The notes below the pieces were generated by a model. The model saw only the letters and a list, made by a program, of their open reading frames with translations, was not told the origin of the DNA and searched no databases. From positions 2,230,127-2,294,126 of the forward strand of contig OY282448.1 in assembly GCA_958296175.1 (NCBI GenBank): DNA of 64,000 bases, written 5' to 3'. The position numbers and the translations under genes were made by a program. This DNA is from an uncultured Chloroflexota bacterium. GTDB lineage: Bacteria > Chloroflexota > UBA11872. Positions 6,565 to 42,953 of this stretch are shown piece by piece (position 1 is the first letter of the stretch; the number at the start of each line of letters is the position of its first letter).

Positions 6565-7935
6565 ATGATGCGACTGCTGCGCGAACGGCTGGAGGCGCGC
6601 GCCGCGGCCGGCCGCCCCGTGACGGTGGCGCTGGCGGGCGCTGGACGGTTCGGCGCCAGCGTTGCGGCGCAGATATCCCAGATCGACGGCCTGCGGCTGG
6701 CGGCGGTGGCCGACCCCAACGCACGCAACGGCGCTGCGGCCCTGCGCGCCGCCGGCTGGACGGACGACCAGGTGCGCCGCTGCGAAGGCCCGGCCGCTGC
6801 CCGCGCGGCGCTGGCGGCCGGCGGCGCCGCGCTCACCCCCGACGCCGACGCGCTGGCAGCCGCGCACGTCGAGGTGTTCGTGGATGCCACCGGGATTCCC
6901 GAAACGGCGGCCCGCAACGCCTGGGCCGCGCTGCGCCTGGGGCGCCACGTGGTGATGGTGACGGTCGAAGCGGACGTCAGCTGCGGCTGGGCGCTGGCGC
7001 GCGAGGCGCGGCGGCAAGGCGTGGTCTACTCGCTGGCGGCCGGCGACCAGCCCATCGCCATCATGGAGCTGTTCGACTGGGCAGCGGCGCTGGGCCTGCG
7101 CGTGATTGCCGTGGGGCGCGGCACGCGGCGCTATCCGTTCGACCGGCACGGCGACCCCGACCAGGCCCTGGCGCGCCTGGGTTACGACGATGCCGCGGCA
7201 CGGCGGCTGCGGCTGAATCCCCAGATGTACAACTCGTTCCGCGACGGCACCAAGGCGCAGATCGAAATGTGCGCCGCGGCCAACATGACAGGGCTGCCGC
7301 CCGACCGCCGCGGCATGCACGAGCCTTCCGCCAGCCTGAACGACCTGCCCAACCTGTTTGCGCCGGCCGACGCCGGCGGCCTGCTGCACCGCGTCGGCGC
7401 GGTCGATCTGGCGAACGCCGTGACGCCCGACGGAGCTTCCGACATCCCCGAGCACGTGGCCGACGGTGTGTGGGCGGTGGTTGGGTCCGACCATCACCGC
7501 GTGCAAGAAGACCTGCGCATCCACGGCACGCGCGTGTCGCGGGACGGACGCCGCATGGCGCTGTTCCGCGAATACCACCTCTGCGGCGTGGAAACTCCGC
7601 TCAGCATTGCCCAGGCCGCCTTGCTGGGCGCTGCGTCAGGCGCGCCGCGCGAAGCGCCCGTCGCCGAAGTGCTGGCCTACGCCAAACGGACTCTGCGACC
7701 CGGCGACACGCTGGACGGTTCCGGCGGCCGTTTGGTCTACGGCCTCGTCGACCGAGCGGAGGCCCTGCAAACCGAGGCCGCGCTCCCGTTGGGCCTGGCG
7801 TACGGCGTCAGGGTGCTCGAGCCCGTGCCCGCCGACCGCCCCATCCCCGCCCATGCCGTGCAGGTCGACCCCAACGCCTTCATCGCCCGCCTGCGCGCCG
7901 CAGCCGCCGAGCCGCCCGCCGCGGCGTTCGGCTGA
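6565..7935 (+). CDS. NAD(P)-binding oxidoreductase with a SAF-like C-terminal domain (homoserine-dehydrogenase-like)
   Basis: N-terminal Rossmann motif VALAGAGRFG; 456 aa. It resembles predicted SAF-domain dehydrogenases. The exact substrate is unknown. Confidence 0.45.
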   Translation: MMRLLRERLEARAAAGRPVTVALAGAGRFGASVAAQISQIDGLRLAAVADPNARNGAAALRAAGWTDDQVRRCEGPAAARAALAAGGAALTPDADALAAAHVEVFVDATGIPETAARNAWAALRLGRHVVMVTVEADVSCGWALAREARRQGVVYSLAAGDQPIAIMELFDWAAALGLRVIAVGRGTRRYPFDRHGDPDQALARLGYDDAAARRLRLNPQMYNSFRDGTKAQIEMCAAANMTGLPPDRRGMHEPSASLNDLPNLFAPADAGGLLHRVGAVDLANAVTPDGASDIPEHVADGVWAVVGSDHHRVQEDLRIHGTRVSRDGRRMALFREYHLCGVETPLSIAQAALLGAASGAPREAPVAEVLAYAKRTLRPGDTLDGSGGRLVYGLVDRAEALQTEAALPLGLAYGVRVLEPVPADRPIPAHAVQVDPNAFIARLRAAAAEPPAAAFG

Positions 7936-10605: not shown

Positions 10606-13509
10606 CTACGGGAGGCGCCTGACCGCACGCGGATCTTCGTAAGGAGCATACGCCGCCTCGCCGTCTGCGGAGACCTCGATGCGCAGCACCGGGAGGTAGG
10701 CCGTGTCGCTCCGGGCCTCGGCGCTCGGCTCGCGCCGCAGACGCATTGCCAGCACCCAGACGCCCGGCCCGGGGATCTGGCCGGACGATGCCGCGTCGAC
10801 GAACGTCCCCTGGTCATCGCGCGCGGCAAGCCGGGACGTGCGCGCGTCGAAGTCAAACGTCTGGGGTGCTGGCGCCTCGTCGGGCGGAAAATGACCGGCG
10901 AACCACACCACGTAAATCGGCGTGCGATTGTGCGGGGGGACGGTCCGTGGAAGCGCCCGCGGCGAATCGTCCACGGCCACGACCAGCCAATCCTGTCCAT
11001 CCCAGTGCGTGGCCGTGTCCAGCAGCGTGGCCGTAAACACGGCGCGCCCATCCAGGGTGTGCGCGTCGGACACCCGCACGCTGGCGGCGATGGGCGGCGC
11101 GTCAGGCGGCATGATTGGCGCCACGGCGCCGCGCGGCGCGATGACGGCAAGCTCGTCGTTCCACCAGACTGGCTGGCGGCTGTCCGGCGGAAACATCCAG
11201 GGCAGCAACGGCAGCGGCGCCGCGACGAGGTCGGGCTCGACGCCGCCCAGCGGTTCGATCTGGAAGGGCCGCCGCAGATGCGCCACGCTCGAATCGAGCT
11301 GGCCGACCAGGCGCGCGTGGTCCAGCGACGCGGCGATGCGCACCATGGCCTTCGACTCGAACGGCGCAGGCAGCCAGACGACGGCGGACGCCGGCACGGA
11401 CTGCCGCAGCGCCTCGTACGAGGCGGGCGCTGGCGGCGCATCGATCTGCAGGAACGCCGGGCGCACGCGGTAGAGCGCGTCGGCGCCGTCGCGAACCAGA
11501 AGGTCGAAGTAGCGCGGATTCTCCAGCCGCCGCCGTGCCTGAGCCGGAAGCTCGGCCGCCCAGACGTCCGTGGCATGCACGTAGTCGACCTCCAGCCGGC
11601 GGACGGCGGTCGGATCGAGGAAGCCCGCGGCATCTCGATACGCGGCGCCAGTCATTCTGCCCAGGTGAAATCGTCCGGCAAGCCCAGACACGTTCGGTCG
11701 CCCCGTGGCAAACGTCATCCGATGGGGACTCGGTGAGAGGACTCTCGCGTCGACGGCCGTGCGGTCGCGGATGAATGCGGCGACGTCCGAGCGCGCCAGA
11801 GATCCGACCTGCTGCCGACTGATTGCGTGGATCCTGATCCCCGGCTGCTCCGCTGACGCATTGGAAACCTGCACGCCGTGCCCGACGGACAGCCCGAGAT
11901 TGCGAACCGGCGCCGCCGCGGTTGGCCAGATGACGAGGGCAACCACCACCGCGCCGGCCGCGTAGCGCCAGCGCGGCCGCAGGTCGTGCAGCCGGGCGCT
12001 GAGTGCAACCATCAACGCCAGCACCGCGAAGGTGCGTGCGTGCCCGTCGAATCTGACCAAATCGTGCGACGCCGAGCCGTAGCGGACCGTGAGGACGGCC
12101 AGCAGGAACAGCGCGCTGCCGGCCGCCAGCGCCAGCGCCAGGCGGTCGCGCCGGGCCAGCAGCGCCGCGGCGGCGGCCACGACGACGGGGCCCAGACCCA
12201 GCACGCCCACGCCGCCCGGCTGCGGGTCGAACGTTCCGACCAGCCGCCGATTGCCGGGATCCGCAGGCGCGCCCACGGACAAGCCCGACGCGGCCCCCTC
12301 GGTGAGCATGCCGGTGAGCGTGGAGGTGAAGACGCCCCCGCCCGCGGCAAGCAGGAGGACGGCAAGCGCCGGCCCGGCGGCGGCATGCGCCGCCGGGCGC
12401 AGGCGCCGCGGCATCGCCGCTCGGGTCGACCAAAGCGCCGCGGCCTCGAGCGCCGCCCATAGCGCCAGCACGATAGGCGCAACGGTTTCGTCGGCGAGCC
12501 CCAGGAACCCGACCAGCGCCGCCAACGTCACGGCGGCCGGCCAGCCCCCAGGCCGATTCGCTGCGGCAACGCCGCCGCCGACCACCCGCGCACCGCGCCT
12601 GGTCCCCGGTAGGCCGGCCGCCGCCCGCTCCAACACCACGAGCGCCAGCGCATAGGCCAGCACGAAGAACGGTTTGAACAGATTGGGCGGCGACGGGCCG
12701 TAGCCGTTCATCCCGCGAAATTCCCAGCTCCACGGCGGTTCGGTGGGCCAGTAGATGTCGAGCAGCGACGCGCGCAGGCCGGCGGACGGCACGCCGGCCG
12801 GGACGGGAACGTCCACCACGTGCGCTGGCGTGTAGACCACCAGCGTCCAGGCGCCCGCCGACAGCAGCAGCGGCACGGTGACCAGCACGGCGCCCCAGAA
12901 CGCGCGCGTCCACAGCGCCGTTGCCACGGTCAGCGCCAGGCTCACCCAGATATAGGCGCTCAGCAGCTCCATGGCGAACGCCAGGTCGGGGCCGACCGGC
13001 GGCGCCAACGCGCCCAGCAGCAGATCGGTGCCGTAGTGGTAATTGGCCGGCGCGCCAGGGCTGTAGGGCAGCTCCGGCGGGAACCCGCCCTCGCGAATCG
13101 CAGCGGCCAGCCCCAGGTGGAGGTGCGCGTCCGGCGTGTGCAACTGCTGCCGGGCCGCCAGGGCGACCCAGAAAAGCGCCAGGGCGGCGACGAAGAACCC
13201 GGCCGCAACGCGCGGCTGTGGCAGGAGGCGCGTGCGGCTGCGCCGCGCGCGCCAGGCAAGCGCGGCGGCAAGCGCCAGCATGACGACCCACCCCACGGCG
13301 GCGCCGGCGCGGCCGGGAACTGCGTACATGACGAAGTTGACCAGCAGCCCCCACAGCGCCGGCCCCACCACCAACCCCTGCGCCAGCGCCATGGCGTCGT
13401 CGTCCTGACGCAGGGCCGTGCGCACGATGACGAACCCGACCGCCGCCAGCGCGCAAAGCTCCGCCGCCAGCAGCAGCAGGCCGGGAAGGACGGTTGGGTC
13501 GACGGTCAT
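10606..13509 (-). CDS. Large polytopic membrane protein with an extracytoplasmic C-terminal domain (possible GT-C-type glycosyltransferase; function unknown), copy B
   Basis: Intact 967-aa ORF. Start chosen at MTVDPTVLPGLL by homology to the copy A start MRVDPTVVPGLL. The N-terminal half has 10 or more hydrophobic segments; the C-terminal half is soluble. The alternative 835-aa ORF 11102..13609 is rejected. Confidence 0.4.
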   Translation of the reverse strand: MTVDPTVLPGLLLLAAELCALAAVGFVIVRTALRQDDDAMALAQGLVVGPALWGLLVNFVMYAVPGRAGAAVGWVVMLALAAALAWRARRSRTRLLPQPRVAAGFFVAALALFWVALAARQQLHTPDAHLHLGLAAAIREGGFPPELPYSPGAPANYHYGTDLLLGALAPPVGPDLAFAMELLSAYIWVSLALTVATALWTRAFWGAVLVTVPLLLSAGAWTLVVYTPAHVVDVPVPAGVPSAGLRASLLDIYWPTEPPWSWEFRGMNGYGPSPPNLFKPFFVLAYALALVVLERAAAGLPGTRRGARVVGGGVAAANRPGGWPAAVTLAALVGFLGLADETVAPIVLALWAALEAAALWSTRAAMPRRLRPAAHAAAGPALAVLLLAAGGGVFTSTLTGMLTEGAASGLSVGAPADPGNRRLVGTFDPQPGGVGVLGLGPVVVAAAAALLARRDRLALALAAGSALFLLAVLTVRYGSASHDLVRFDGHARTFAVLALMVALSARLHDLRPRWRYAAGAVVVALVIWPTAAAPVRNLGLSVGHGVQVSNASAEQPGIRIHAISRQQVGSLARSDVAAFIRDRTAVDARVLSPSPHRMTFATGRPNVSGLAGRFHLGRMTGAAYRDAAGFLDPTAVRRLEVDYVHATDVWAAELPAQARRRLENPRYFDLLVRDGADALYRVRPAFLQIDAPPAPASYEALRQSVPASAVVWLPAPFESKAMVRIAASLDHARLVGQLDSSVAHLRRPFQIEPLGGVEPDLVAAPLPLLPWMFPPDSRQPVWWNDELAVIAPRGAVAPIMPPDAPPIAASVRVSDAHTLDGRAVFTATLLDTATHWDGQDWLVVAVDDSPRALPRTVPPHNRTPIYVVWFAGHFPPDEAPAPQTFDFDARTSRLAARDDQGTFVDAASSGQIPGPGVWVLAMRLRREPSAEARSDTAYLPVLRIEVSADGEAAYAPYEDPRAVRRLP

Positions 13510-13701: not shown

Positions 13702-14157
13702 CTACCGCCGTTGGGCCAAGCGCTCGGTGTCCGCCTGGCGCAGCGGGCGGTGGGCGTCCAGTGTCACGGTGTCGCTGTGGTCGGGCGGGTAAGGCGGGCT
13801 GGTGATGAAGAGCGCGCGGGCCGGAGCGCCGCCGGCGGCTGTCAGTTGCAGCGTGTGTCCCGGCGGGGTGACCACGGATTCACCCGCGGCCGCCGTGCAT
13901 GCGCGCACCGCGCCCAGGTCGGCGTCATAGGTTGCGGCGCGGATGCGGCCGGCCAGCACGTAGGTCACCTGCTCCAGCGTCAGGTGCGCGTGCACGCCGT
14001 AGATGCGCCCGGGTTCGAGGCTGCCCTCGGCCAGCGCCAGATGCGCGCAGGGGCTGACGTCGATCGGACGCACCACAATCCCATCCTGCGCCGTCACGGG
14101 CGGCCCCGGCGTTCGCGTCCCAACGTGCGCACCGACGGCATCCGTGGTTTCGGTCAA
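13702..14157 (-). CDS. Cupin domain protein
   Basis: 151 aa with a cupin two-His motif (GVHAH...). Overlaps the upstream gene by 4 bp. Confidence 0.55.
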   Translation of the reverse strand: MTETTDAVGAHVGTRTPGPPVTAQDGIVVRPIDVSPCAHLALAEGSLEPGRIYGVHAHLTLEQVTYVLAGRIRAATYDADLGAVRACTAAAGESVVTPPGHTLQLTAAGGAPARALFITSPPYPPDHSDTVTLDAHRPLRQADTERLAQRR

Positions 14158-16013
14158 GGCGTCGGGTCGACTGGCCGCGGGCGGTGGAGGTCCGCTGGGG
14201 TTCCGGTCGATAACGGTCCCCCGAACGCGTCGATGACTTCGTCCGAGTCACGGCCTGGGATTGGTTTTCCCATGGCGTCCTCTATGGCGTCCAGCAGCTT
14301 GACCGCGCGGTCGCGGATGAAGCCGCCAAAGTCGTTGCGGCGCAGCAGCTCGGGTTCGATCCAGTGTGTTGCGAGCACCTCGTCCAGGCGATCTCTGCTG
14401 ATGTTCCCGGTGTTCACCAGCCTGTCGAGATATTGACTCGGAGCGCTGCCGCCGAGCATTCGATTGGTCTCGCTGGTGAGCGGCGCTTTGTTCACCACGC
14501 TATTGGAGGTCGAATAATCCACGCCATTATTCGAACACCAAGCCCGCGGGAAAATGTGATGGATGTCGACAGGCAATGAGAACCCCATGGTGTGCGCAAT
14601 CGGATTCGCATTCTTGAAGTCGTGGCTCCCCTGCTTTACCATGAGGGAAAAGAGGCCCTTGTATGCGGCGCTGTTTCGAGTACTGAGGCCAAGCAGCCGC
14701 GTAGGAGCAAAATTCGCGTCGCGAATAGTACGCGGCTCTTCGTTGCCCTCGGTCCACCCAACGACATCCTGGATGTCCATCGTGTAACGAGTTTCGTTGG
14801 CGCCGCCGTACATCTCGCCCAGTACGCCGCACCAGTACCAGCGGGCGAGCTTCGCGAGGACGTCGTGTGCGTCGAGCTGCTTGTCGAGATAGGCGCAAAT
14901 CGCCGCCAAGGGCACGAGCTGAGTTCCGTACGGCAGGTTTCGCCGGTCGAAGACCCTCTCACGGGTCAGCAACTGCGCGGCGCGTTGAAAACCGTGCTCG
15001 ACGGACGAGGCGTTGTCCTTATACTCATCGAGCGTCAGCCGCAGCACGTCGCGGCGCCGGACGCTGACCGCGCTCGTACTTCCCGGCGCGCGGCTGCGCT
15101 TGTAGCTGGCAAGCAGCGTAACCGCCTGCAAGAAGTCGGTGCTGCTCACTCCGCGCAGCACGTTCTGCTCTGCAATCCGCTCACGCCGTTCTGCCCAGTC
15201 GTCCCGCAGGCGGAAGTTGTCAGCGGCGAAGCTGGCCGTCACGAGCTCGAAGACCGACAAGGTGACGCCGCCCGTGTTCACCTTTTCGAATACCTGGCAG
15301 ACGGCCTCTTTGGGAGTTTCCCTCTTTAACTCAATGACTGGAACTTTGTATTTATTAATCGGAAGCCAGATTTTCGCAAGAAACTGGTCGATGAACTCGA
15401 CTTTTCCAGGATTGAACTTGAAGTACTCTTTGTATCCAGAGTTCCATTGAAAAGCCTCGACAGCGTTGAAGATCATCTCCAGCGGGTACAGTCCACGCTC
15501 ATACTCACGCTCGCGCGTTGTTACGTCGAGTACCACCGTGCGCCCAAAATCGGCCGTGCGCACCTTCGATTCAGGAAGCGAGAGAACCGCTTCTTCCCGG
15601 TCCAGGTCGGGGTCGAGGCATTTGGCCATGTCCAGATAATAATACAGTTTGGTTTCCTGGCCTCGCGTCGTTCGCGTGGGGACAGGGCGGCCGCTCATGA
15701 GCGCGAGAAAAAGCGAGGTCAGCCGCTGTTGGCCGTCGAGAACCAGGCCGTTGGGCGAAGTGAGAGAGTCGAGGTGGACGCCTGCGAACGGCCGCGGCAA
15801 GAAACTGCCGCTCTCCCCGCCAGTTTCCAGCACCATCACGGCGCCGATCGGGTAGGAGAGCGTGACACTGGCGATCAGCGAACGAATGTGCGCATCGTCC
15901 CAGATCCAACTGCGCTGAAAATCGGGCAGCTGGATGGCGCCTTTGCCGATGTCACTCAGGAGTTCCGAGAGCAGCGGCTCGTTTGTCTGGAACGTTCCCG
16001 AGGAGAATGCCAT
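14154..16013 (-). CDS. GmrSD-family type IV (modification-dependent) restriction endonuclease; DUF262 (ParB-like NTPase) + DUF1524 (HNH-like)
   Basis: N-terminal DUF262 hallmark LDGQQRLTSL. C-terminal DUF1524 motif DIHHIFPRAWC followed by N..V. 619 aa. The gene lies in a roughly 58% GC stretch against a roughly 70% background. Confidence 0.8.
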   Translation of the reverse strand: MAFSSGTFQTNEPLLSELLSDIGKGAIQLPDFQRSWIWDDAHIRSLIASVTLSYPIGAVMVLETGGESGSFLPRPFAGVHLDSLTSPNGLVLDGQQRLTSLFLALMSGRPVPTRTTRGQETKLYYYLDMAKCLDPDLDREEAVLSLPESKVRTADFGRTVVLDVTTREREYERGLYPLEMIFNAVEAFQWNSGYKEYFKFNPGKVEFIDQFLAKIWLPINKYKVPVIELKRETPKEAVCQVFEKVNTGGVTLSVFELVTASFAADNFRLRDDWAERRERIAEQNVLRGVSSTDFLQAVTLLASYKRSRAPGSTSAVSVRRRDVLRLTLDEYKDNASSVEHGFQRAAQLLTRERVFDRRNLPYGTQLVPLAAICAYLDKQLDAHDVLAKLARWYWCGVLGEMYGGANETRYTMDIQDVVGWTEGNEEPRTIRDANFAPTRLLGLSTRNSAAYKGLFSLMVKQGSHDFKNANPIAHTMGFSLPVDIHHIFPRAWCSNNGVDYSTSNSVVNKAPLTSETNRMLGGSAPSQYLDRLVNTGNISRDRLDEVLATHWIEPELLRRNDFGGFIRDRAVKLLDAIEDAMGKPIPGRDSDEVIDAFGGPLSTGTPADLHRPRPVDPTP

Positions 16014-16136
16014 TGTGTCCGTCCGTTTCCTTTTTACAAGCCACTCGATTGCGGCGCGTGAACTCCTGGCGCGGCGCGCGCCAACCGGCGCGCACCGAGG
16101 CCAGCATGATGACCCAGACTCCAGAATCTTCTGCGG

Positions 16137-16907
16137 CTAGTGCGCCCCTTCCGCCACGGGCACGCCGTGCAGCAGGCCGGCCTGGTGCATCTTTTCCCAG
16201 CGTTCCAGGAAGGTGGCGTTCCACTCGTCGGTGAGCGGGCTGTGCAGCATGTCGCGGAAGACTTCCCAGAAGACGATGATGCCGTCCGCGCCGGCCTGCA
16301 GGGCCGCGTTGGCCACGTCCACCGAGCGCACCAGCGCCGCGGTCACGTAGGGCCGCTGTTCCCAACCCTCCAGCATGTCCACGCACTCGCGCACGTGCCA
16401 CACCGGGTCCACGCCCACGGCTTTGTAGGGTTCGCAGAAGGGCAGGATGTGGGTGGCGCCGGCCTGCGCAACCACCGCCGCCTGCGTCAGGTTGAACGTG
16501 GTGGTGCAAAACGTCTCCACGCCCTCGGCGGCCAGCGCGGCGAAGGCCTCCAGTCCCTGCGCGGCGCAGGGAATCTTGATGACGATCTGCTCCGACATGG
16601 CGGTGAACACGTGCGCCACGTCCAGCAGCTCGGCCGTGGTGTGCCCGTCGATCTCCACCACCACCGGCTTGTCCGTGATGTCCAGATAGCGCCGCACCAC
16701 CTCGGTCAGCTGCCCGTACTTCTGGGTCATGTCGTCCAGCACCACGGTGTTGGTGACGATGCCGTAGCCGCCGCGGGGCAGCCAGACTTTCAGGTCTTCC
16801 GGGTCGCCCGCCAGCCAGATGGCCGGCCCCCGCTCGGTGAGCCGCGCACGGGTCACGGGACCCGCCTCGGCGTCGACGCCGTTTGCCGTAATCGCCATGC
16901 CTGCCAT
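16137..16907 (-). CDS. Transaldolase / fructose-6-phosphate aldolase family protein
   Basis: 256 aa with a TIM-barrel transaldolase signature (KIPCAAQGLEAF, Schiff-base lysine context). The ATG overlaps the upstream stop as ATGA. Confidence 0.75.
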   Translation of the reverse strand: MAGMAITANGVDAEAGPVTRARLTERGPAIWLAGDPEDLKVWLPRGGYGIVTNTVVLDDMTQKYGQLTEVVRRYLDITDKPVVVEIDGHTTAELLDVAHVFTAMSEQIVIKIPCAAQGLEAFAALAAEGVETFCTTTFNLTQAAVVAQAGATHILPFCEPYKAVGVDPVWHVRECVDMLEGWEQRPYVTAALVRSVDVANAALQAGADGIIVFWEVFRDMLHSPLTDEWNATFLERWEKMHQAGLLHGVPVAEGAH

Positions 16908-17320
16908 CAGAGCCGCTCCCCGTCAACCAGCTGCAACCCCACGCCCAGCGTGGCGTCGGTGTCCAAGAACGTGATGCGCCAGTCCGACGAGCTGACGATC
17001 GGCGCGGTGCCCGCAATGCCCAGCTCCTCGCCGAGCGTGCGCAGCGTGGCGTCGAAGTCGTCGTCCCGAAACGCCACGTGGTGCACGCTGGGCCCGTGCT
17101 CCTTCAGGTGCGCGGCAAACGCGCTGACCTCGTCGTTGGTGGGGCAGATGATTTCCAGGTAGCTGCCCGTCTGGCCGATCTGCAGCGCCGCGTAGGCGTT
17201 GCCCTCGGCCTCCGACTCCCAGATTTTCGCGGCCGTCATGCCCAGCTTGTCGCGAAACAGGGCCAGCGCCGCCTCGCGGTCGGGCACGACGTAGGCGATG
17301 TGATGAACCGCGTCGAACAT
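16907..17320 (-). CDS. VOC family protein (methylmalonyl-CoA epimerase/glyoxalase-like)
   Basis: 137 aa (MFDAVHHIAYVVPD...), with the typical VOC N-terminal H..Y motif. The RBS AGGAGGAGCC lies 6 bp upstream. It is the true gene inside the over-extended ORF 16907..18004. Confidence 0.6.
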   Translation of the reverse strand: MFDAVHHIAYVVPDREAALALFRDKLGMTAAKIWESEAEGNAYAALQIGQTGSYLEIICPTNDEVSAFAAHLKEHGPSVHHVAFRDDDFDATLRTLGEELGIAGTAPIVSSSDWRITFLDTDATLGVGLQLVDGERL

Positions 17321-17550
17321 GGCTCCTCCTTCTGCCGTTCCGCCAATCCGCCGAACGGCGCGACCCTCGACCTGGAACCGCGCCGCCCGCCGTCCGGGCA
17401 GGCCGCGGCCCGCGGACGCACCCGACCCCTTCGGACGAAGACCGCCCGCGCCGTGTGCTACCGTTCCCCGCGGCACAGCACAGCGGGCGCACCGGATCGT
17501 CTCGGGCCGAGGCGCTGCGTCCGCCGTATGGTTGCACACGGAAGGTGGCC

Positions 17551-18052
17551 GATGCGGATCCGCCGCGCTGCGTGGTGGTGCGCAGCCCTGCTGCTGGCGG
17601 CGGTGCTCGTCATGGGCGCGTCCTGCGAGCCGGCGCCCCCGCTGCCTGACACCACGGCCAGCGCCGTTATGGCCTACCTGGCCGACGTCGATTACCAGCA
17701 GTCCTGGGAACTCTGGCCCGAGCTGGGCGAGCTGTACGAGAGCGAAGAGCCTCACGGCTTGCTGCTGACCACCTATCTCAACCGCGCCGCCTCCGAGGCC
17801 CTGGCTGACAAAGCGGGCGTCATGCCCGACGGCGCAATCATCGTGAAGGAGAACTACACCGCCGCCGGCGTTTTCGATTCCACCACCGTCATGTACAAGC
17901 GGGCGGGATACAACCCGGACCACAACGACTGGTTCTGGGCCAAAGTCGCCGCCGACGGCGCGGTGCTGAAGGAAGGCCGTGTGGAGGGCTGCCAGAACTG
18001 CCACGGCGACGCCAGCGGCAACGACTACGTGATGACGGACTACCTGCGCTAA
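17551..18052 (+). CDS. Cytochrome P460 family protein (secreted c-type heme protein)
   Basis: Signal peptide MRIRRAAWWCAALLLAAVLVMGASC. CxxCH heme motif CQNCHG near the C-terminus. 167 aa, typical of P460/c'-beta. Confidence 0.6.
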
Positions 18053-18275
18053 CCGAACCCGCCCGCGCTCCCACCCGCCGCGCCCCGCGTTCCGAAGCGC
18101 CTTTGGCCTCTCTCGTCAGCGGTCTGAGAAAACGCCGCGGGCGGCAGGGCTGCGGGGTGTCTGTCGAGCAGGCGGGCTTGTCCACGCGGAAACCGCCGCG
18201 GGCGGGCCGCGGATGGCCGACACCGTTTGCACAGATGGCCGACATGAAACCGGCGCGGCCGGCCGGGCCGCGGCC

Positions 18276-19400
18276 CTACTCGATGAAGGTTCGCCAGGCG
18301 TAGGCTGGCTCCGGCCCGCCCGGCTCGTCCTCCAGCGCGCTGAGGTTCAGGTCGCCGAACCCCAGGCCGGGTTCGTCGCTGAGATACATGTAGCCGTCCT
18401 GCACCTCCAGCGCCTCGCCTGCCACCTGGCAGCGCAGGTCGGCTTCCGGGAAGGCGGTTTCCAGCACCCAGAAGTTGGGCGCAACCGCCGCCGCCTGCAG
18501 GGCCATCGCCGCCGACACCGGGCCGCCGGAATTGTGCGGCGCCAGCTGGACGGCATACGTCTCGGCGGCGGCCGCAATCTTGCGCACCTCCGTGATGCCG
18601 CCCGCGTGGGTCAGGTCCGGCTGAACGAACGCCGCCCCCTGCCCCTCCAGCAGCTCGCGGAAGTCCTGGCGGCTGAACAGCTTCTCGCCGCAGGCAATCG
18701 GCACGGCCATGCGCGGCGCAAGCGCACACGTGGCCTTCACGTTCTCGGCTGGAATCGGTTCCTCCATCCAAACCGGGTCGAACGGCGCCAGCGCCTGCGC
18801 GGCCTGGATCGCGTGCCGCGGAGTCAGCCGCTCGGCGCACTCGACATAAATCTCGAAGTCAGGCCCGGCCGCGTCCCGAATGCCCTGCAGCATCTCGGCG
18901 GCGAAACGGATGGCCTGCGTCTCGGTGCGGCGGCCGGGCGCGCCAAACGGCGTGACCTTCACGCCGCGGTAGCCCTGCGCCTGCGCGCGCAGCGCGCCGT
19001 CCACGTGGTCGGCCGTCGAGTCCATCCAGCGCGACACCCCGCCCGCGTACACCCGCGCCCGCCGGCGCAGCGGGCCGCCCAGCAGCCGCCAGACGGGAAC
19101 CCCGTGTCGCTTGCCGTGCAGGTCCCACAGCGCGCCGTCGATGGCCGAAATGGCGCTGCTGACGATCGGGCCGCCGCGCCAGCCCGTGCAGAGGTCGCGC
19201 CAGATCAGCTCGATTGCCGACGAGTCGCGCCCCAGCAGCCGCGGCGTGAAGTGCTGAATCGCCCCGGCCACCGCCCGCCCCCGGTCGGAGGTGGACCCCT
19301 CGCCCCAGCCGTGCAGCCCTTCGTCCGTCGACACGCGCACGAACAGCCACTCGCGCCAGCGCACGTACTTCGAAAAAACTTCGATGCCCGTAATCGTCAT
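18276..19400 (-). CDS. Enolase-superfamily enzyme (mandelate racemase / muconate lactonising enzyme family; D-galactonate-dehydratase-like)
   Basis: 374 aa. Motifs include KVTPFG, the metal ligand context D..E..D, and a GxKLxxxGG-like region (ACGEKLFS). Confidence 0.75.
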   Translation of the reverse strand: MTITGIEVFSKYVRWREWLFVRVSTDEGLHGWGEGSTSDRGRAVAGAIQHFTPRLLGRDSSAIELIWRDLCTGWRGGPIVSSAISAIDGALWDLHGKRHGVPVWRLLGGPLRRRARVYAGGVSRWMDSTADHVDGALRAQAQGYRGVKVTPFGAPGRRTETQAIRFAAEMLQGIRDAAGPDFEIYVECAERLTPRHAIQAAQALAPFDPVWMEEPIPAENVKATCALAPRMAVPIACGEKLFSRQDFRELLEGQGAAFVQPDLTHAGGITEVRKIAAAAETYAVQLAPHNSGGPVSAAMALQAAAVAPNFWVLETAFPEADLRCQVAGEALEVQDGYMYLSDEPGLGFGDLNLSALEDEPGGPEPAYAWRTFIE

Positions 19401-19470
19401 GCAGCCCTTCCGTCGTTCCGCGCGGCGCGCGCCGCCGGTGCCGTGCGGACCGCGGCGCCGCCGACCGCCG

Positions 19471-20229
19471 TCACGCCGCGGCCGTCCGAAACGGCGACAC
19501 CGCCGGACGCGCCGGCGAGGTGGACGACGGGCAAACGTCGTTCAGCGTGCAGCCGTCGCAGTCCGGCCGCCGCGCGTCGCAGACCCGCCGCCCGTGCCAG
19601 ATGACGGCCGTGCCGGCAAAAATCCAGGCGCCGCGGTCCAGGGTGTCCATCAGGTCGCGTTCGATCGTGACCGGGTCCGCCGCGCGCGTCAGCCCCAGCC
19701 GCTGCGAGAGCCGCTTGACGTGCGTATCCACCACCACGCCGCTGGCCACGCCAAAGGCTTCGCCCAGCACCACGTTGGCGCTCTTGCGCGCCACGCCGCG
19801 CAGGCGCAGCAAGTCCTCCATGCGGCGCGGCACCTCGCCGTCGAACTCGTGCACCAGCTGCGCCGCCGTTTCTCGAATGGCGCGCGCCTTGCTGCGGAAG
19901 AAGCCCGTCGGGTGGATCAGCGCTTCCACTTCCAGCTGCGAGGCCGCCGCCAGCGCCTGCGGCGTGGGAAAGCGCCCGAACAAGGCCGGCGTCACCCGGT
20001 TCACCGTCACGTCGGTGGTCTGCGCCGACAAGATCACCGCAATCAGGAACTGAAACGGCGAGCGGTAGTCGAGTTCCGCCGCCGCGTCCGGATACAGCGC
20101 GCGCAGCCGCCGCACGATCTCCGCCGCCCGCGCGCGCCGCGCCGCTTTCGACTCCCGCCAGCGCCGAACCACCAACGCCGGCCGCCCCGCGCGCCCCCGA
20201 GTCCTCCTCCCAGCCATACCCAGCAGCAT
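19471..20229 (-). CDS. nth: Endonuclease III (DNA glycosylase/AP lyase)
   Basis: HhH-GPD motifs: FQFLIAVILSAQTTD, LRLRGVARKSANVVLGEAFG (catalytic Lys), VDTHV. Fe-S cluster C-x6-C-x2-C-x5-C at the C-terminus. The exact start is uncertain. Confidence 0.85.
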   Translation of the reverse strand: MLLGMAGRRTRGRAGRPALVVRRWRESKAARRARAAEIVRRLRALYPDAAAELDYRSPFQFLIAVILSAQTTDVTVNRVTPALFGRFPTPQALAAASQLEVEALIHPTGFFRSKARAIRETAAQLVHEFDGEVPRRMEDLLRLRGVARKSANVVLGEAFGVASGVVVDTHVKRLSQRLGLTRAADPVTIERDLMDTLDRGAWIFAGTAVIWHGRRVCDARRPDCDGCTLNDVCPSSTSPARPAVSPFRTAAA

Positions 20230-20454
20230 ATCCACCCCACCGCGCCGGCGGCCACAAGGCCGAAAGACCGGCATAAGCAGTCAGCGGCCAGGGGCCGAGG
20301 GCGCGGGACGTGCGGCAAGCGCCGCGCTTGCCGCTCCCCCGGCCAAGGACGCCGCCGCGGCCGCAGCGCAGGCGGCCCACGGCCAGCCCACGGCCGGCCC
20401 ACGGGCGGCCCCTGCGCCTATAATCCCAGCGGCCGCCGCGCCCGGACGCCCTCC

Positions 20455-23400
20455 GTGCCCATCGCCAACCTCGACGACGCCTACGAGCTCGACCAAGCCG
20501 TCGGGCGCATCCTGCGCGCGCCCGACCCGCGCCAGCGTGCGGAAGCCGTCCGGCGGCTGTTCGTCGAGGTGCTGGACTTCCATTCGCAGTCCGGCCAGGT
20601 TTCGTTGCGGCCGCCGCCCGCCGGTGCGCAGCTTCCCGCCGCTGCCGAGCGCGTCGCGGTGTTGGACGGCGTGCACGTCTGTTACGTCGCGCTCCAGGCG
20701 CCGGAAAACGACCGCGTGCGCACGGCCGAAGCGTCCGCCGCGGCGCGGCGGCTGGCCGACCAGCTGGGCGACGACCTGCTGCTGGCCGTCTCCAACGCCT
20801 CCGGCCGCCAGCTGCACCTCATCCATCCGCGCGTACAGGGTGCGCGGCCCACGCTGCGCCGTCTGGTGTTCGAACAAGGCCTGCCGCGCCGCACCGCCGT
20901 CCAGCAGGCCGCCAACATCTACGCCGAATACCGCGCGTCCCGCAGCATCCGCGCCGCCCTGGACGCCGCCTTCGACGTCGAGCCGGTCACGCGGCGCTTC
21001 TTCAGCGACTACAAGAAAGTGTTCACCCAGGCCGAACGACTGGTCACCGGCTTCGGCCCCGACCAGGCCGACGACAAGCGCCTGTTCGTGCAGACGCTCT
21101 TCAACCGGCTCATGTTCGTGCACTTCCTCTCGCGCAAAGGCTGGCTGACCTTCCAGGGCAAGAACGAATACGTGCAAGCGCTTTGGGACAGCTACCAGTC
21201 CCGCCGCCCCAGCGAAACCAACTTCTACCGCGACCGTCTGCACCCCCTGTTCTTCTGCGGCCTCAACAACCCGTCGGGCACGGACGTGAACGGTCGCTAC
21301 ATGCGGAAGGTCTACGGCGACGCGCCGTTCCTGAACGGCGGCCTGTTCGAGCAAAGCGCACTGGACCGGCGGCCAGGCGTGCAGGTGCCCGACGAAGCCA
21401 TCGCACCCGTCGTGCAAGCGCGCAGCGGCTTGTTCCAGCGCTTCAACTTCACCGTCATGGAATCCACGCCCTACGACGTGGAAGTGGCCGTGGACCCGGA
21501 AATGCTGGGCAAAGTGTTCGAGGAACTGGTCAACGAACGCCACGCCAGCGGCGCCTACTACACGCCGCGCCCCGTGGTGGCCTTCATGTGCCGCGAGGCG
21601 CTGAAAGGCTTTCTGGAACACCGCGTGGACGAGTTGGACGCTCAGACTGTGGAAGACTTCGTGGACCGGCGCGACCCCTCCCGCGCCACGCTGGCGCAGG
21701 CGATCCAGCTGAGCAGCGCGCTGGACGACGTCACCGTCATCGACCCTGCCTGCGGTTCCGGCGCCTACCTGCTGGGCATGCTGCAGGAACTGCTGGAGCT
21801 GCAAACCACGCTCTACAGCCAGAAGCTGCGCCGCGACGCGCGCACCTTCTACCAGCTGAAACTGCACGTCATCCAGCGCAACCTCTACGGCGTCGACGTC
21901 GACCCGTTCGCCGTCAACATCGCCAAGCTGCGCCTCTGGCTCTCCCTGGCCATCGACTACGACGGCGACAAACCCGAGCCGCTGCCCAACCTGGACTTCA
22001 AGATCGTCTGCGGCGACAGCCTGCTCGGGCCGGAGCCGGTGCTGCACCTCTCGGCAAAGAAGTCGGAACTCGGCGAGTTGAAGGGCAAGTTCATGCTCGC
22101 CACGGCGCAAAAGGAAAAAGACGAGCTGCGCGGGGGCATCGCGGCTGAGCGCGCTCGGGTCGAGCAGGTGCTGGCGGGCGCATCCGCACCCGAAGGCGCG
22201 GTGAACTGGCGCCTGGACTTTGCCGAAGTGTTCGAGAAGCCCGGCAGCTTCGACATCGCCATTGCAAACCCGCCCTACGTGCGGCAGGAAAAGATCGGTC
22301 CCAGCAAAGCAAGGCTCGTTCGGCAATACGCCGGAGCCGTGAACGCCCGCTCGGACCTGTATTGCTATTTCTACGCGCGTGCGCTGCAACTGCTGCGGCG
22401 CGGCGGCCAACACGTCTTTATCTGCTCCAATAGCTGGCTGGACGTTGGATACGGCGCGCGGCTCCAGGATTTCCTGCTCTACAACGCGCACGTTCGCGCC
22501 ATCTACGAAAGCGCGGTGGAACGGCAATTTTCGACCGCCCAAATCAACACCGTCATCAGCGTCATCGAAAAGAACGGTGTCTGCGACGAGAGTCCGACGC
22601 GGTTCGTGTCGCTGCGGGGCGAGTTCGAGCAGGCGATGGCCGACCCGACGCTTCGCCGCCAGATTACCAAGACCCGCCGGGAACTGCTGGACGCCGCAAC
22701 GAGCGGCGTCGACAGCCGAGGACACGCCAAATTCGTGGGCGACAAGTGGGGCGGCAAGTATCTGCGCGCCCCGGACATCTATCACCACATCCTGACAACG
22801 TATAGCGACAAGTTCGTGCGGCTGGGCGATATCGCGACAGTGAGATTTGGTATAAAGACCGGCGCCAATGCGTTTTTCTTTCTCGACGAGGCGCGCATCC
22901 AGCAGTGGAACATCGAAGAAGAGTACCTTGCTCCCGTAATGACCAGCCCCCAAGAGTCCCGCAGCATCCTCGTCGACCCCGACACGCTTCCGAAGAAGCT
23001 CTTTGTGTGCCACAAGGAGAAAGACGAGCTTAGACACACGGGAGCGCTGGCGTACATTCAATGGGGTGAGACGAATGAGTACCACAAGCGGCGCAGCATG
23101 GTTTCGCGAAAGAGATGGTACGATCTGGGAATACGAGACGGGGTATATCTGGCAATGAATTTGTTAGTGCATGCGAACGCAAGAACGTATCTTTATAAAG
23201 AAGCGGTGTTTTGCAGCAACAACTTTCATGTATTTGCTTCAAAGCATAAGAATGCTAGTGTGTGCACATCACTTAATTCCACGCTTTCTCAGCTTAGCAT
23301 CAACGTGGAGTCACGATCCAATTTTGGCGAAGGTGTTCTGGAGATACAAACATATGAAACCGCTAATTTGCGGATTGTAAAGCCTGAACATATTACGACC

Positions 23401-23628
23401 ATAGATGAGTGTCTGTTCACTTCATCGGACCTTGACATTGTAAGCCGAGAGAATGGCGATCCAGCTTGGCAAGTTGACGATGTATCTGCGAATCGTCGCG
23501 CTATAGACGATGTAGTGTTTGACGTGCTTGGCCTGACCCAAGACGAACGTGACGCAGTGTACGAAAGCGTTATCGAACTAATCAGCAACCGCCTCAGCCG
23601 CGCAAGCAGCGTGCATACCACGAGGTGA
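20455..23628 (+). CDS. MmeI/Eco57I-family (COG1002) N6-adenine DNA methyltransferase, about 1057 aa. The N-terminal PD-(D/E)xK catalytic residues appear lost, so it is probably methyltransferase-only, as in DrmMI or PglX. The C-terminal target-recognition part is sharply low in GC.
   Basis: Motifs: helical-domain PFLNGGLFEQ, GAYYTPRPVV, motif I VIDPACGSGAYLLG, motif IV NPPY (IAIANPPYVRQE). GTG start at 20455. The upstream part of ORF 19291..23628 is antisense to nth and the enolase gene and is rejected. GC falls from about 68% to about 40% after roughly 23050. Confidence 0.85.
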   Translation: MPIANLDDAYELDQAVGRILRAPDPRQRAEAVRRLFVEVLDFHSQSGQVSLRPPPAGAQLPAAAERVAVLDGVHVCYVALQAPENDRVRTAEASAAARRLADQLGDDLLLAVSNASGRQLHLIHPRVQGARPTLRRLVFEQGLPRRTAVQQAANIYAEYRASRSIRAALDAAFDVEPVTRRFFSDYKKVFTQAERLVTGFGPDQADDKRLFVQTLFNRLMFVHFLSRKGWLTFQGKNEYVQALWDSYQSRRPSETNFYRDRLHPLFFCGLNNPSGTDVNGRYMRKVYGDAPFLNGGLFEQSALDRRPGVQVPDEAIAPVVQARSGLFQRFNFTVMESTPYDVEVAVDPEMLGKVFEELVNERHASGAYYTPRPVVAFMCREALKGFLEHRVDELDAQTVEDFVDRRDPSRATLAQAIQLSSALDDVTVIDPACGSGAYLLGMLQELLELQTTLYSQKLRRDARTFYQLKLHVIQRNLYGVDVDPFAVNIAKLRLWLSLAIDYDGDKPEPLPNLDFKIVCGDSLLGPEPVLHLSAKKSELGELKGKFMLATAQKEKDELRGGIAAERARVEQVLAGASAPEGAVNWRLDFAEVFEKPGSFDIAIANPPYVRQEKIGPSKARLVRQYAGAVNARSDLYCYFYARALQLLRRGGQHVFICSNSWLDVGYGARLQDFLLYNAHVRAIYESAVERQFSTAQINTVISVIEKNGVCDESPTRFVSLRGEFEQAMADPTLRRQITKTRRELLDAATSGVDSRGHAKFVGDKWGGKYLRAPDIYHHILTTYSDKFVRLGDIATVRFGIKTGANAFFFLDEARIQQWNIEEEYLAPVMTSPQESRSILVDPDTLPKKLFVCHKEKDELRHTGALAYIQWGETNEYHKRRSMVSRKRWYDLGIRDGVYLAMNLLVHANARTYLYKEAVFCSNNFHVFASKHKNASVCTSLNSTLSQLSINVESRSNFGEGVLEIQTYETANLRIVKPEHITTIDECLFTSSDLDIVSRENGDPAWQVDDVSANRRAIDDVVFDVLGLTQDERDAVYESVIELISNRLSRASSVHTTR

Positions 23629-23766: not shown

Positions 23767-24750
23767 TCACATGAGCATTGACATGTTTAGACCTTGCATG
23801 TCTTCCTTGACGGGGACTTCGAGTTTTGTGACAAAGTACCGTGGCGCACTCAATTTTACGCGTTGAATGCGTACGCTGATGCGCACTCGCTGCTTCAACA
23901 GCGCGTTTATCGGCTTTTCCTCGGCAACGGTGCGCTCGACTTTGGCCTGAATCACTTCCCCCTTACCGCCGTCTGGTGATTGGCCCGCTGGCTCGTCAAC
24001 GACAAATTCCGCTAACTGCCGCTTTGGTAAGTAGCCTTGAAAGTATCCGACCAGTGTGATGTGTTCCTCAGGGATTGGTTTCTGACTCAAACGCTTCACG
24101 CTGGCCTGAACTTGGCTCACGTCACGAAATGCAAACACGCCGCCCTTGAATCTCAGGCGGCATGTGGCCTCTTTGGAATGCAGCACGTCAACGAATTTTC
24201 GTATGGCGTTTACCGCGCGTTCGTCGGTTTCATCCCAAATATGAGCCATTGCATCGTCGCTCTCGACCGATGCCTTCAGGATGTCCTGCGTCCGCGCAAT
24301 CGCCGCCTCGACGTGACTCAGCATCGACTCGAACGCCGTCTGTGAGGACGCGCCCTCGAGTTGGAACCCAAATGACCCCCGCACGACGTCCGTAATCATG
24401 AGCCGGTAGTCTTCTCGATTCGGGATGCGGTCGAGTGCGCCCAAATCGGCTGCCGAATGCTGGCTTGCCCCGACGGCGGCGACGGCGTTTTCAAACGTCC
24501 GGACGGCGTCCCCGCCAAATCCAGCGTCGATGCCTTGTCGGCCCGCGACGGGTTTCCCCTCGAAGCTAAGAAGCGCTTCTGTGGGTTGGGCGGGAAGTAC
24601 CGCAGGGTAGTCGAGGAGTTCCGCCTCGACCTCGGCAAGCCGCTGTGTCAGCGTGTGTTGCCGGATCGCACTTTCCGGTGCCGTGCGGTCGAGCATGTCT
24701 TTCAGCGCGGCTTGTTCGGAAAGCAGAAAACTATGTTCGCGCCTGCTCAT
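23767..24750 (-). CDS. Hypothetical protein (327 aa), second gene of a two-gene operon inside the defence locus
   Basis: No motif recognised. Its start ATG overlaps the upstream stop (TAATG), and a strong RBS AGGAGGACAGTA lies in the upstream gene's 3' end. Moderately reduced GC. Confidence 0.5.
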   Translation of the reverse strand: MSRREHSFLLSEQAALKDMLDRTAPESAIRQHTLTQRLAEVEAELLDYPAVLPAQPTEALLSFEGKPVAGRQGIDAGFGGDAVRTFENAVAAVGASQHSAADLGALDRIPNREDYRLMITDVVRGSFGFQLEGASSQTAFESMLSHVEAAIARTQDILKASVESDDAMAHIWDETDERAVNAIRKFVDVLHSKEATCRLRFKGGVFAFRDVSQVQASVKRLSQKPIPEEHITLVGYFQGYLPKRQLAEFVVDEPAGQSPDGGKGEVIQAKVERTVAEEKPINALLKQRVRISVRIQRVKLSAPRYFVTKLEVPVKEDMQGLNMSMLM

Positions 24751-25526: not shown

Positions 25527-25668
25527 CGGGCGGGTTCGCTGCTCGTGAACGCGTGCTACGCTCGCGTTACAGTATTGACTTGGCGCGGCGCTCGATGAAT
25601 ATGCACGGGTTCGGGTCTACGCCAACGCGCGCGCGCGTGCGGGGCGCGGCGTTCGCCAGGTCGGCGTC

Positions 25669-29265: not shown

Positions 29266-29423
29266 AGCCCCTGCCCCCCACATAGAAGCTTCCGCCGTCT
29301 CCCGCGCGGCATCCAGCGCCCGTTCCCAGGACCCTTGCTCCCACAGAAGTCCCGCTTCTGCCCCTTGCTCCTGCGCGCCCTCTGGTTTGCCGCGCCTTGC
29401 GGCAGGGGTGAGGGGCGCTGTGG

Positions 29424-42696: not shown

Positions 42697-42953
42697 CAGA
42701 CGCGCTGCGTACTCGGATTACTTACGGAGGGAAGATTGCGCACGTCTTGAAGACACAAAACCTATACGGCGGGCAGCGGCGTCCCGCCCAGGAGCAGACG
42801 GCGCAGAGCGTACCTAGTTGAATGTGTGGCGGACAGTATCACGTCTCGCCCACGCGCGCACGGCGCACGTCGGTCGTACTACTCCTGCGTGAGTTCCAGC
42901 CCCAACCTGCCAGATGCAAGCACGTAGCGTGAATAGGCTCTATGGCGCCTGTG

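Follow-up and report, generated by a model that had tools for sequence, protein, structure and literature searches.

A solo GmrSD-like gene in a variable chromosomal slot of an uncultured Chloroflexota bacterium

We analyzed a stretch of 64,000 nucleotides (hereafter the window) from the genome of an uncultured Chloroflexota bacterium (assembly GCA_958296175.1, contig OY282448.1, positions 2,230,127 to 2,294,126), in which a minus-strand gene at 14154-16013, here called the DUF262 gene, encodes a 619-residue protein with an N-terminal DUF262 NTPase domain and a predicted C-terminal HNH nuclease. The gene was acquired horizontally and is the sole occupant of a variable slot between a transaldolase-family gene (TAL) and a cupin gene, a slot that is distinct from a second insertion, carrying a DNA methyltransferase (MTase) and a PLD-SNF2 protein, farther along the window. 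We consider it very likely that the product is a GmrSD-like, nucleoside triphosphate (NTP)-gated nuclease used in defense. With less assurance, but still as the reading we favor, we take it to be a stand-alone type IV enzyme that cuts modified DNA without the need of a partner.

Domain architecture of the GmrSD-like protein

The gene is an ATG-initiated open reading frame (ORF) and not one of the fortuitous frames that GC-rich DNA contains, as indicated by its match to PF03235 (GmrSD_N/DUF262; residues 15-262, E=1e-28, 101 bits versus a cut-off of 33.2 in a Pfam profile search), by the more than 8000 database proteins that match its product, and by the N-terminus MAFSSGTF that it has in common with its orthologs. 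The closest of these proteins, 76-77% identical, are encoded in Chloroflexota metagenome-assembled genomes (MAGs). A preliminary description, made from the sequence alone, had assigned to this ORF a DUF262 domain with a DGQQR motif and a DUF1524 domain with an HxxP motif, and had proposed to verify both with the corresponding profiles. The first assignment was borne out, with DGQQR at residues 93-97, whereas the second held for the motif (H486-P489) and not for the profile PF07510, at the thresholds given below.

Aligning 115 homologs whose identity to the window protein is 54-76%, we found the N-domain positions Q28-L-P-D-F-Q-R34, S49, L92-D-G-Q95, R97, F242-E, V245-N246 and G248-G249 to be invariant, with Q96 and T247 conserved in at least 90% of the sequences. 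The published GmrSD N-domain motifs QR, (I/V)DGQQR and FxxxN (Machnicka et al. 2015, PMC4619093) are therefore all present at conserved positions, as Q33-R34, L92-D93-G-Q-Q-R97 and F242-xxx-N246, and S49 is the counterpart of the serine in the RLFDS motif, which was taken from the BrxU paper (PMC8565348). The two domains of a single GmrSD polypeptide are separated by a helical linker of 200-400 residues (PMC4619093); the length of the linker in the window protein agrees with this, helices being near-unbroken from about residue 254 to 461 according to DSSP on the AlphaFold2 model.

This model (predicted local distance difference test score, pLDDT, 91.2; predicted template modeling score, pTM, 0.81) consists of an alpha/beta N-domain, the helices and a beta-beta-alpha element. 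In Foldseek comparisons with the PDB, the top match was BrxU (7p9k/7p9m), at E=1.1e-13, probability 1.0 and 17% identity over 636 aligned columns, that is, over the full length, followed by SspE (E=1e-3) and DndI in second and third place; the preliminary description's view of a two-domain protein resembling GmrSD, BrxU and SspE thus agrees with the predicted fold. The TM-score to BrxU was only 0.38-0.40, in keeping with the difference in domain orientation between monomer predictions and the intertwined BrxU dimer (Payne et al. 2024 preprint, 10.1101/2024.01.29.577857). Foldseek also matched Cas9 HNH domains to the C-terminal ~110 residues, with a probability of 0.97. Searches of PDB sequences, either with the single protein or with a family profile of 20 sequences, retrieved only the N-domains of BrxU and SspE and nothing for the C-domain; the profile reached BrxU at 7.7e-8, via the N-domain only. 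Among PADLOC models, the protein matched HEC-05, which is BrxU (Payne et al. 2024, 10.1101/2024.01.29.577857), at E=3e-18, whereas the matches to SspE were weak and that to HEC-06 reached E=2.7e-4. The best matches in BFVD, a collection of viral predicted structures, were GmrSD_C and DUF262 proteins.

By motif and predicted fold, the C-terminal domain is a His-Me finger (HNH) nuclease, although not one recognizable as a Pfam DUF1524. Its positions H485-H486, F488-P489, N508-K509 and N517 are invariant in the family alignment, and the HxxP motif, H486-I-F-P489, lies inside the longer DIHHIFP. Within the E/D-H-N-N set of catalytic residues, H486, N508 and N517 are located on the beta-beta-alpha element of the model (strands E482-486 and E509-513, helix H514-520), and the E/D position is taken by H485, with D483 two residues upstream. 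The HNH motif of Cas9 reads D-x-D-H-I-x-P, and the local motif D483-x-H485-H486-I-x-P is closer to it than to the (D/E)-H-I-x-P of GmrSD and BrxU. The only Pfam match of the isolated C-terminal 261 residues was HNH_4, at E=0.47. We also scanned seven distant family members, comprising plasmid copies 22-42% identical to the window protein, one archaeal copy and one from Bifidobacterium. All seven contained GmrSD_N and five matched HNH_4 (PF13395; best E=1.1e-4, just over the gathering score), and the best score for PF07510 was E=0.11, in a single protein. DUF1524 itself also belongs to the His-Me finger superfamily in Pfam (PMC4619093).

Two independent insertions around a conserved backbone

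The DUF262 gene has a GC content of 59.8%, versus a window mean of 69.5% (z = -2.4), in agreement with the lower GC that the preliminary description had pointed out. Only two low-GC patches of this strength occur in the 64 kb, at 14.1-16.3 kb and 21.5-25.9 kb, and they correspond to the two insertions described in this section. The effect resides mainly at third codon positions, whose GC content (GC3) is 0.742 in the gene versus 0.855-0.928 in five syntenic neighbors.

The closest public relatives of the window are Chloroflexota MAGs. Two of the corresponding loci, L002 (the same as L001, GCA_022824865.1) and L003, contain a 76-77% identical ortholog at the identical position, in the gene order HhH-GPD, MR_MLE, glyoxalase, TAL, DUF262, cupin, so that the gene is found at this site in three genomes, including the window. 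We identified four further relatives, L093 to L096, by searching with the transaldolase and inspecting the contigs. L093 and L094 have the same backbone, with flanks 90-96% identical to those of L002 at the nucleotide level, and carry genes for DUF2442 (94 aa) and DUF4160 (86 aa) in the slot (L093 6834-7371; L094 1971-2508) in place of the DUF262 gene. L095 and L096, whose TAL is 73-78% identical to that of the window, contain neither the DUF262 gene nor the cupin. Given that the slot contents differ among L002/L003, L093/L094 and L095/L096, the DUF262 gene is accessory and the TAL-cupin junction is a small hotspot for the exchange of alternative cargos. The comparison with close relatives that the preliminary description had suggested thus delimited the slot to 14107-16132, a segment of ~2.0 kb that holds one gene and coincides with the low-GC patch, and indicated that this gene is neither core-conserved nor native in its GC3, being replaced in L093 and L094.

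The L002 ortholog is likewise anomalous in composition, with a GC3 of 0.575 versus 0.82-0.90 around it. Together with the presence/absence polymorphism at the slot, the anomalous GC3 in both genomes indicates that the DUF262 gene was acquired horizontally, as the preliminary description had supposed. The ratio of nonsynonymous to synonymous substitution rates (dN/dS) between the window gene and its L002 ortholog was 0.05, and their dN (0.156) was similar to that of the neighboring HhH-GPD gene (0.152), indicating that the gene is under purifying selection and is about as old as the split of these genomes. In other high-GC hosts, family genes also lie below their surroundings in GC (0.55 versus 0.68 for L090, 284-2104, and 0.52 versus ~0.66 for L002, 6208-8058), which fits with repeated recent transfer; the conserved amino-acid composition, with low GC at first and second codon positions (GC1, GC2), may also contribute.

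A search for direct or inverted repeats flanking the slot yielded only short imperfect matches of 12-20 nt, as expected in DNA of 70% GC, and none of the ORFs scanned beside the DUF262 gene matched an integrase family. An MR_MLE gene near the 66%-identical homolog in L090 was considered as a sign of deeper synteny and rejected, since it is only 33% identical and hence not an ortholog. We found no sigma-70-like promoter on the minus strand upstream of the gene, in a scan that gave three promoter-like matches, all on the other strand, and that is uninformative for Chloroflexota. On the other flank, homology of the cupin to its relatives begins at about residue 15, and the first 15-28 cupin residues vary according to the slot cargo. 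The DUF262-less loci L093 and L094 encode, ~3.5 kb downstream of the slot (11429-12771 and 6566-7908, respectively), an 880-aa McrB-like AAA protein (He_PIG, AAA_5, McrB_lid), a type IV-like restriction component of another kind close to this site.

The second insertion starts on the far side of the backbone genes. The MTase gene likely begins at a GTG at 20455, 4.4 kb from the DUF262 gene and close to the ~4 kb given in the preliminary description. An ORF from the listed start, 19291, would run across HhH-GPD on the opposite strand, so that this start is spurious, and coding-type GC3 and profile matches begin only at ~20.35-20.95 kb. The PLD-SNF2 protein matched NCBIfam DrmD at 2e-40, below the cut-off, and PADLOC 'HKD+Snf2' at 9e-50. 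In L095 and L096, a VanW gene (29412-31352 in the window) directly adjoins HhH-GPD, without MTase or PLD-SNF2 genes; in L002 and L093, a solute-binding protein gene lies beside HhH-GPD, and both MTase and PLD-SNF2 genes are likewise absent. The MTase/PLD-SNF2 locus (~20.4-29.3 kb) was inserted separately, as a segment of ~9 kb, at the junction of HhH-GPD and VanW. The window therefore holds two independent insertions flanking a conserved, four-gene ancestral backbone. The preliminary description had placed the DUF262 gene at the upstream end of one defense island interrupted by housekeeping genes, and this is wrong, because the two insertions occupy different junctions (TAL-cupin and HhH-GPD-VanW) and are present or absent independently, the MTase/PLD-SNF2 locus being missing both from L002, which has the DUF262 gene, and from L093.

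Coordinates of all features are collected in Table 1. The last ~600 nt of the MTase gene have a GC3 of 0.38-0.58 versus 0.74-0.96 earlier in the gene. The 327-aa ORF between the MTase and PLD-SNF2 genes had no match in Pfam, NCBIfam or PADLOC and sits in the kilobase where the GC content of the window is lowest (23-24 kb, 0.48); it may be a third component of this insertion or a separate cargo. A 974-aa ORF on the other side of the DUF262 gene was evaluated as a possible part of an island and discarded, since it encodes a multi-pass membrane protein without defense matches. The gap between glyoxalase and MR_MLE (17321-18275) spans ~950 nt in the window versus 74-160 nt in L002 and L093, and contains a plus-strand ORF (17078-18052) whose C-terminal part matches Cytochrome_P460 (E=3.5e-9); it looks like a third, small window-specific insertion into the backbone. 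The rest of the window is housekeeping. The gene at 39508-42717 (minus strand), whose 1069-aa product combines leucine-rich repeats with DUF7507 and cadherin-like domains, lies where GC dips locally (to 0.60 at 41-42 kb) and GC skew is strong.

Table 1. Features of the DUF262 slot, the adjacent backbone and the second insertion, in window coordinates
Feature	Position	Strand	Basis
Variable slot segment (island A), between the end (16133) and the resumption (14106) of L093 homology	14107-16132		blastn against L093 and L002
GmrSD-like gene, 619 aa: DUF262 NTPase, helical linker and predicted HNH nuclease	14154-16013	-	ORF, Pfam, homologs, AlphaFold2, Foldseek, dN/dS
DUF262/GmrSD_N (ParB/Srx-like NTPase) domain, residues 15-262	15228-15971	-	Pfam; motifs in 115 members; alignment to BrxU residues 8-112
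N-domain motifs QLPDFQR (28-34), S49, DGQQR (93-97), FEKVNTGG (242-249)	15723-15737 (DGQQR)	-	Coordinates checked for DGQQR
Alpha-helical linker, residues ~263-460	14634-15227	-	DSSP on AlphaFold2 model
Predicted His-Me finger/HNH nuclease core, residues ~470-535	14409-14606	-	Motifs, AlphaFold2 beta-beta-alpha, Foldseek, HNH_4 in relatives
Nuclease motifs D483-I-H485-H486-I-F-P489, N508-K509, N517	14547-14567 (D483-P489); 14463-14465 (N517)	-	Coordinates checked
Intergenic region from TAL stop to DUF262 start, with G+C-rich hairpin-like stretch and AGGAAA Shine-Dalgarno-like site	16014-16136	-	Alignment with L002, L003, L093
Cupin gene, downstream flank of slot	13702-14157	-	Pfam Cupin_2; tblastn 64-69% to L002, L003, L093
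Conserved housekeeping backbone between the two insertions	16137-20274	-	Pfam; synteny with L002, L003, L093, L095, L096
TAL (transaldolase-family)	16137-16907	-	
Glyoxalase	16907-17320	-	
MR_MLE	18276-19400	-	
HhH-GPD	19471-20274	-	
Island B gene 1: Eco57I/type IIG-like N6-adenine MTase	20455-23628	+	Pfam Eco57I 4e-33; PADLOC REase_MTase_IIG 1e-78
Island B gene 2: 327-aa protein, GC 57.6%	23767-24750	-	Composition
Island B gene 3: PLD (HKD) nuclease and SNF2 helicase fusion (DrmD-like)	25579-29265	+	Pfam PLDc_2 and Helicase_C

The wider family and its cassette contexts

Against 1.84 billion cluster representatives, the window protein had 804 relatives at E≤1e-30 and 3438 at E≤1e-10, counted as clusters at 50% identity. 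At least 583 species (one genome per species) have a relative, typically 46-62% identical, and the hosts include Proteobacteria, Planctomycetota, Acidobacteriota, Bacillota, Actinomycetota, Cyanobacteria and methanogenic archaea; such a patchy cross-phylum distribution is typical of mobile defense genes. Stand-alone copies occur on conjugative or mobilizable plasmids, near integrases and toxin-antitoxin genes, and only three phage records carry a relative. Some family members extend beyond the HNH domain with a Ser/Thr protein kinase (PF00069), a DUF5655 or ~270 unannotated residues, as in P0043, P0049 and P0070 (~860 aa), P0127 (1105 aa), P0027 and P0035 (~875 aa) and many others, a hint at regulated or multi-effector variants.

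We clustered the neighbors of the family gene in 79 homolog loci. About 30 of them share a cassette consisting of an SNF2 helicase, the DUF262 gene, DUF4391, a type III Mod and a type III Res, sometimes with a WYL regulator upstream (for instance, L016 5829-18105, and also L017, L023, L026, L034, L043 and L050). The embedded copies form essentially one clade, and the window copy belongs to another, all of whose members are solo. Plasmids of Paraburkholderia, Shewanella and Methanomethylovorans (plasmid loci L087, L088 and L089) carry the four-gene cassette with no DUF262 gene in it. At other loci it contains further modules already known from defense, namely AAA_21 with DUF4276 (PARIS-like by domain content), AAA_21 with RloB, or Schlafen/AlbA_2 with HATPase_c_4, or else a UvrD-like helicase. 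The DUF262 gene thus behaves as a self-contained module that the cassette can do without, in the way reported for GmrSD-like genes nested within BREX, Hma and type I restriction-modification systems (10.1101/2024.01.29.577857; PMC8565348). The searchable literature yielded no characterization of this cassette, nor any account of what DUF4391 or its additional SNF2 helicase does. No second DUF262 cluster appeared among the neighbors in the 79 loci. In the window, the neighbors are the cupin and the transaldolase and no conserved partner gene lies beside the DUF262 gene, which therefore stands alone, as the preliminary description had it.

Mechanism, alternatives and known systems

By analogy with BrxU and GmrSD (PMC8565348, PMC4619093), the N-terminal DUF262 domain, of the ParB/Srx fold, would bind and hydrolyze NTP in a pocket formed by the QR, S49, DGQQR and FxxxN elements. 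The nucleotide cycle, probably coupled to a dimer-monomer change through the helical linker, would license the C-terminal His-Me/HNH nuclease, with H486 as the putative general base and N508 and N517 holding the fold and the metal. The nuclease would cut foreign DNA, most likely phage DNA with modified bases, resulting in type IV restriction; the same analogy predicts that the window protein depends on NTP, cleaves DNA, requires that this DNA be modified, and acts against phages. As for its history, horizontal transfer brought the gene into the Chloroflexota lineage, as the single cargo, 2 kb long, of a recombination-prone TAL-cupin slot, and purifying selection has kept it there; it would act independently of the MTase/PLD-SNF2 insertion.

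Several points weigh against a modification-dependent type IV enzyme. PF07510 (DUF1524/GmrSD_C) was detected neither in the whole protein at E≤0.1 nor in the C-terminal 261 residues at E≤10, and our searches of the available literature returned no biochemical or phage data for any member of the window clade. We know of no phage with modified DNA for this uncultured host. Some proteins that combine DUF262 and a nuclease are not modification-dependent cutters of foreign DNA, since SspE senses host phosphorothioate, and TgvAB and GrwAB require a second DUF262 protein. Lastly, GmrSD and BrxU have an acidic residue immediately ahead of the catalytic His (D/E-H), in BrxU the essential D474 (PMC8565348); this position is here the invariant H485, with the Asp two residues upstream, and with this replacement, the chemistry or the regulation could differ.

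Such a difference would suit an NTP-gated HNH nuclease that does not depend on modification, whether it answers to another infection cue, works as a toxic or abortive-infection effector, or attacks plasmids or unmodified DNA. We regard this as unlikely, while granting it an appreciable chance: the active site has H-H at its first position, versus the D/E-H of GmrSD and BrxU, the nuclease is nearer to HNH_4 than to DUF1524, the Ser/Thr kinase and DUF5655 domains of family members suggest regulated activation, and HEC-06 shows that defense spectra differ among GmrSD-like proteins (10.1101/2024.01.29.577857). However, all experimentally characterized single-chain enzymes with DUF262 and a His-Me nuclease (GmrSD, BrxU, SspE, GrwA and TgvB) read DNA modification, and a modification-dependent enzyme is classically found nested, as a complement, inside a system based on methylation (10.1101/2024.01.29.577857, PMC8565348). 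It is improbable that the protein behaves like SspE or DndI, sensing a mark on host DNA (phosphorothioate or the methylation of a partner), nicking invading DNA and relying on a modification module elsewhere. SspE and DndI do follow BrxU among the structural matches, PADLOC gave weak SspE matches and one family clade is physically embedded in the Mod/Res cassette, but the structural match to SspE is far weaker than that to BrxU (E=1e-3 versus 1e-13), members of the window clade and copies on plasmids stand alone, and the SNF2-DUF4391-Mod-Res cassette occurs without the DUF262 gene. Moreover, dnd or ssp genes were found neither among the ORFs scanned across the 64 kb window nor as conserved neighbors in the 79 homolog loci.

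An SNF2 helicase gene ends ~15 nt before the DUF262 gene in ~26 homolog loci, and those helicases share 26-28% identity with the window PLD-SNF2 protein along 800-970 residues, both matching PADLOC 'HKD+Snf2'. This resemblance could suggest a dispersed system, a single split island in which the SNF2 helicase encoded in the MTase/PLD-SNF2 locus, 4-13 kb away, would be the partner of the DUF262 protein. We hold this to be very improbable, because the two loci were inserted separately and at distinct sites, their genes lie on opposite strands with the four conserved backbone genes in between, L002 has the DUF262 gene without MTase/PLD-SNF2, the cassette helicase goes with DUF4391-Mod-Res and occurs without DUF262, and solo family members are common; the DUF262-less cassettes and the separate insertions led us to reject a functional pairing of DUF262 with the PLD-SNF2 helicase. 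Least probable of all is a domesticated housekeeping gene, serving for example DNA repair or chromosome maintenance in an operon near the HhH-GPD glycosylase. Although the gene is tightly packed on the same strand as TAL and cupin, at the same position in three genomes and with a dN/dS of 0.05, near-identical relatives carry DUF2442 and DUF4160 instead and more distant ones are without it, its codon composition is foreign, and the family is scattered across phyla at 50-60% identity, including on plasmids and in defense cassettes. We thus retain the stand-alone type IV enzyme as our preferred reading. Less probably, our results could also be a first look at a very large cross-phylum GmrSD-like clade (at least 804 clusters at 50% identity) with a Cas9-type, HNH_4-like (D-x-H-H) nuclease. 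Such a nuclease could read another DNA mark than GmrSD and BrxU do, or be licensed in another way, e.g. by N6-methyladenine (m6A) or by a state that the type III-like SNF2/DUF4391 cassette makes, and in Chloroflexota its gene would occupy a small slot that alternates between this nuclease and the DUF2442/DUF4160 pair.

The locus provides a well-delimited, single-gene type IV-like restriction module from Chloroflexota, a poorly studied phylum, and an example of an apparent island that consists of two independent insertions around a conserved backbone. The clade to which it leads is large, uncharacterized and GmrSD-like, with a nuclease domain that current Pfam models miss, and its recurrent embedding makes both the clade and the SNF2-DUF4391-Mod-Res cassette reasonable experimental targets. 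For annotation, a protein in which HNH follows DUF262 should be taken as GmrSD-like also when PF07510 gives no match; the results are of practical use, too, for the choice of a representative for biochemistry. Current understanding is not overturned by these results, which are an ordinary addition to a known enzyme family.

On sequence and model, the window protein is GmrSD-like but not a canonical DUF262+DUF1524 member, as it has the N-domain profile, the three motifs, the linker and the predicted fold, together with a variant first catalytic position and no PF07510 match. In the TgvAB and GrwAB systems of Vibrio cholerae, TgvB and GrwA have the same DUF262-linker-His-Me architecture and motif set, but need a second DUF262 protein, and none is adjacent in the window or in the homolog loci. 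The phosphorothioate-sensing SspE and DndI, second and third by structure, likewise combine the DUF262 N-domain with a C-terminal nuclease; their similarity is much weaker, their C-terminal organization is different, and no phosphorothioate-modification genes were found near the window gene among the ORFs scanned. HEC-06 and other embedded GmrSD-like defenses (Payne et al. 2024) are also divergent single proteins, and one clade of our family is similarly embedded, in the same orientation, in a modification-based system. The PADLOC score for HEC-06 is weak, however, and the host system is here of the SNF2-DUF4391-type III Mod-Res kind and not Hma, BREX or type I; the window copy itself lies between TAL and cupin and is not embedded in the sense of Payne et al. 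(2024), unlike its sister clade in ~30 of the 79 loci.

GmrSD, or Eco94GmrSD (E. coli CT596, STEC_94C), is the founding type IV enzyme against DNA with glucosylated hydroxymethylcytosine (glc-hmC). The window protein resembles it in the QR, (I/V)DGQQRLT and FxxxN motifs of the N-domain, in the H...N...N His-Me nuclease of the C-domain and in its horizontal mobility (PMC4619093), but has no Pfam GmrSD_C match, and its HHIFPR and NKAPLTxxTN correspond only loosely to the (E/D)H(I/L/V)xPQ and L(G/A)NLxLLxxxN of GmrD, whose NxxFxxKK has no equivalent. The closest of the named systems is BrxU, BREX-embedded on the Escherichia fergusonii plasmid pEFER. The two differ in that their identity is only ~17%, the window C-domain falls short of PF07510, DHIYP in BrxU is HHIFP in the window, with the Asp at -2 as in the DxDH of Cas9, and the window protein, known here from sequence and model, is encoded solo in a chromosomal slot and not within BREX. 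Nevertheless, BrxU is a single chain of the same ~600 aa, with DUF262, a helical linker and a His-Me nuclease, and it is both the best full-length structural match and the best PDB sequence match of the window protein, in which the RLFDS Ser, the DGQQR and the (D)HIxP His of BrxU all have conserved equivalents; furthermore, relatives of both proteins are embedded in methylation-based defense systems.

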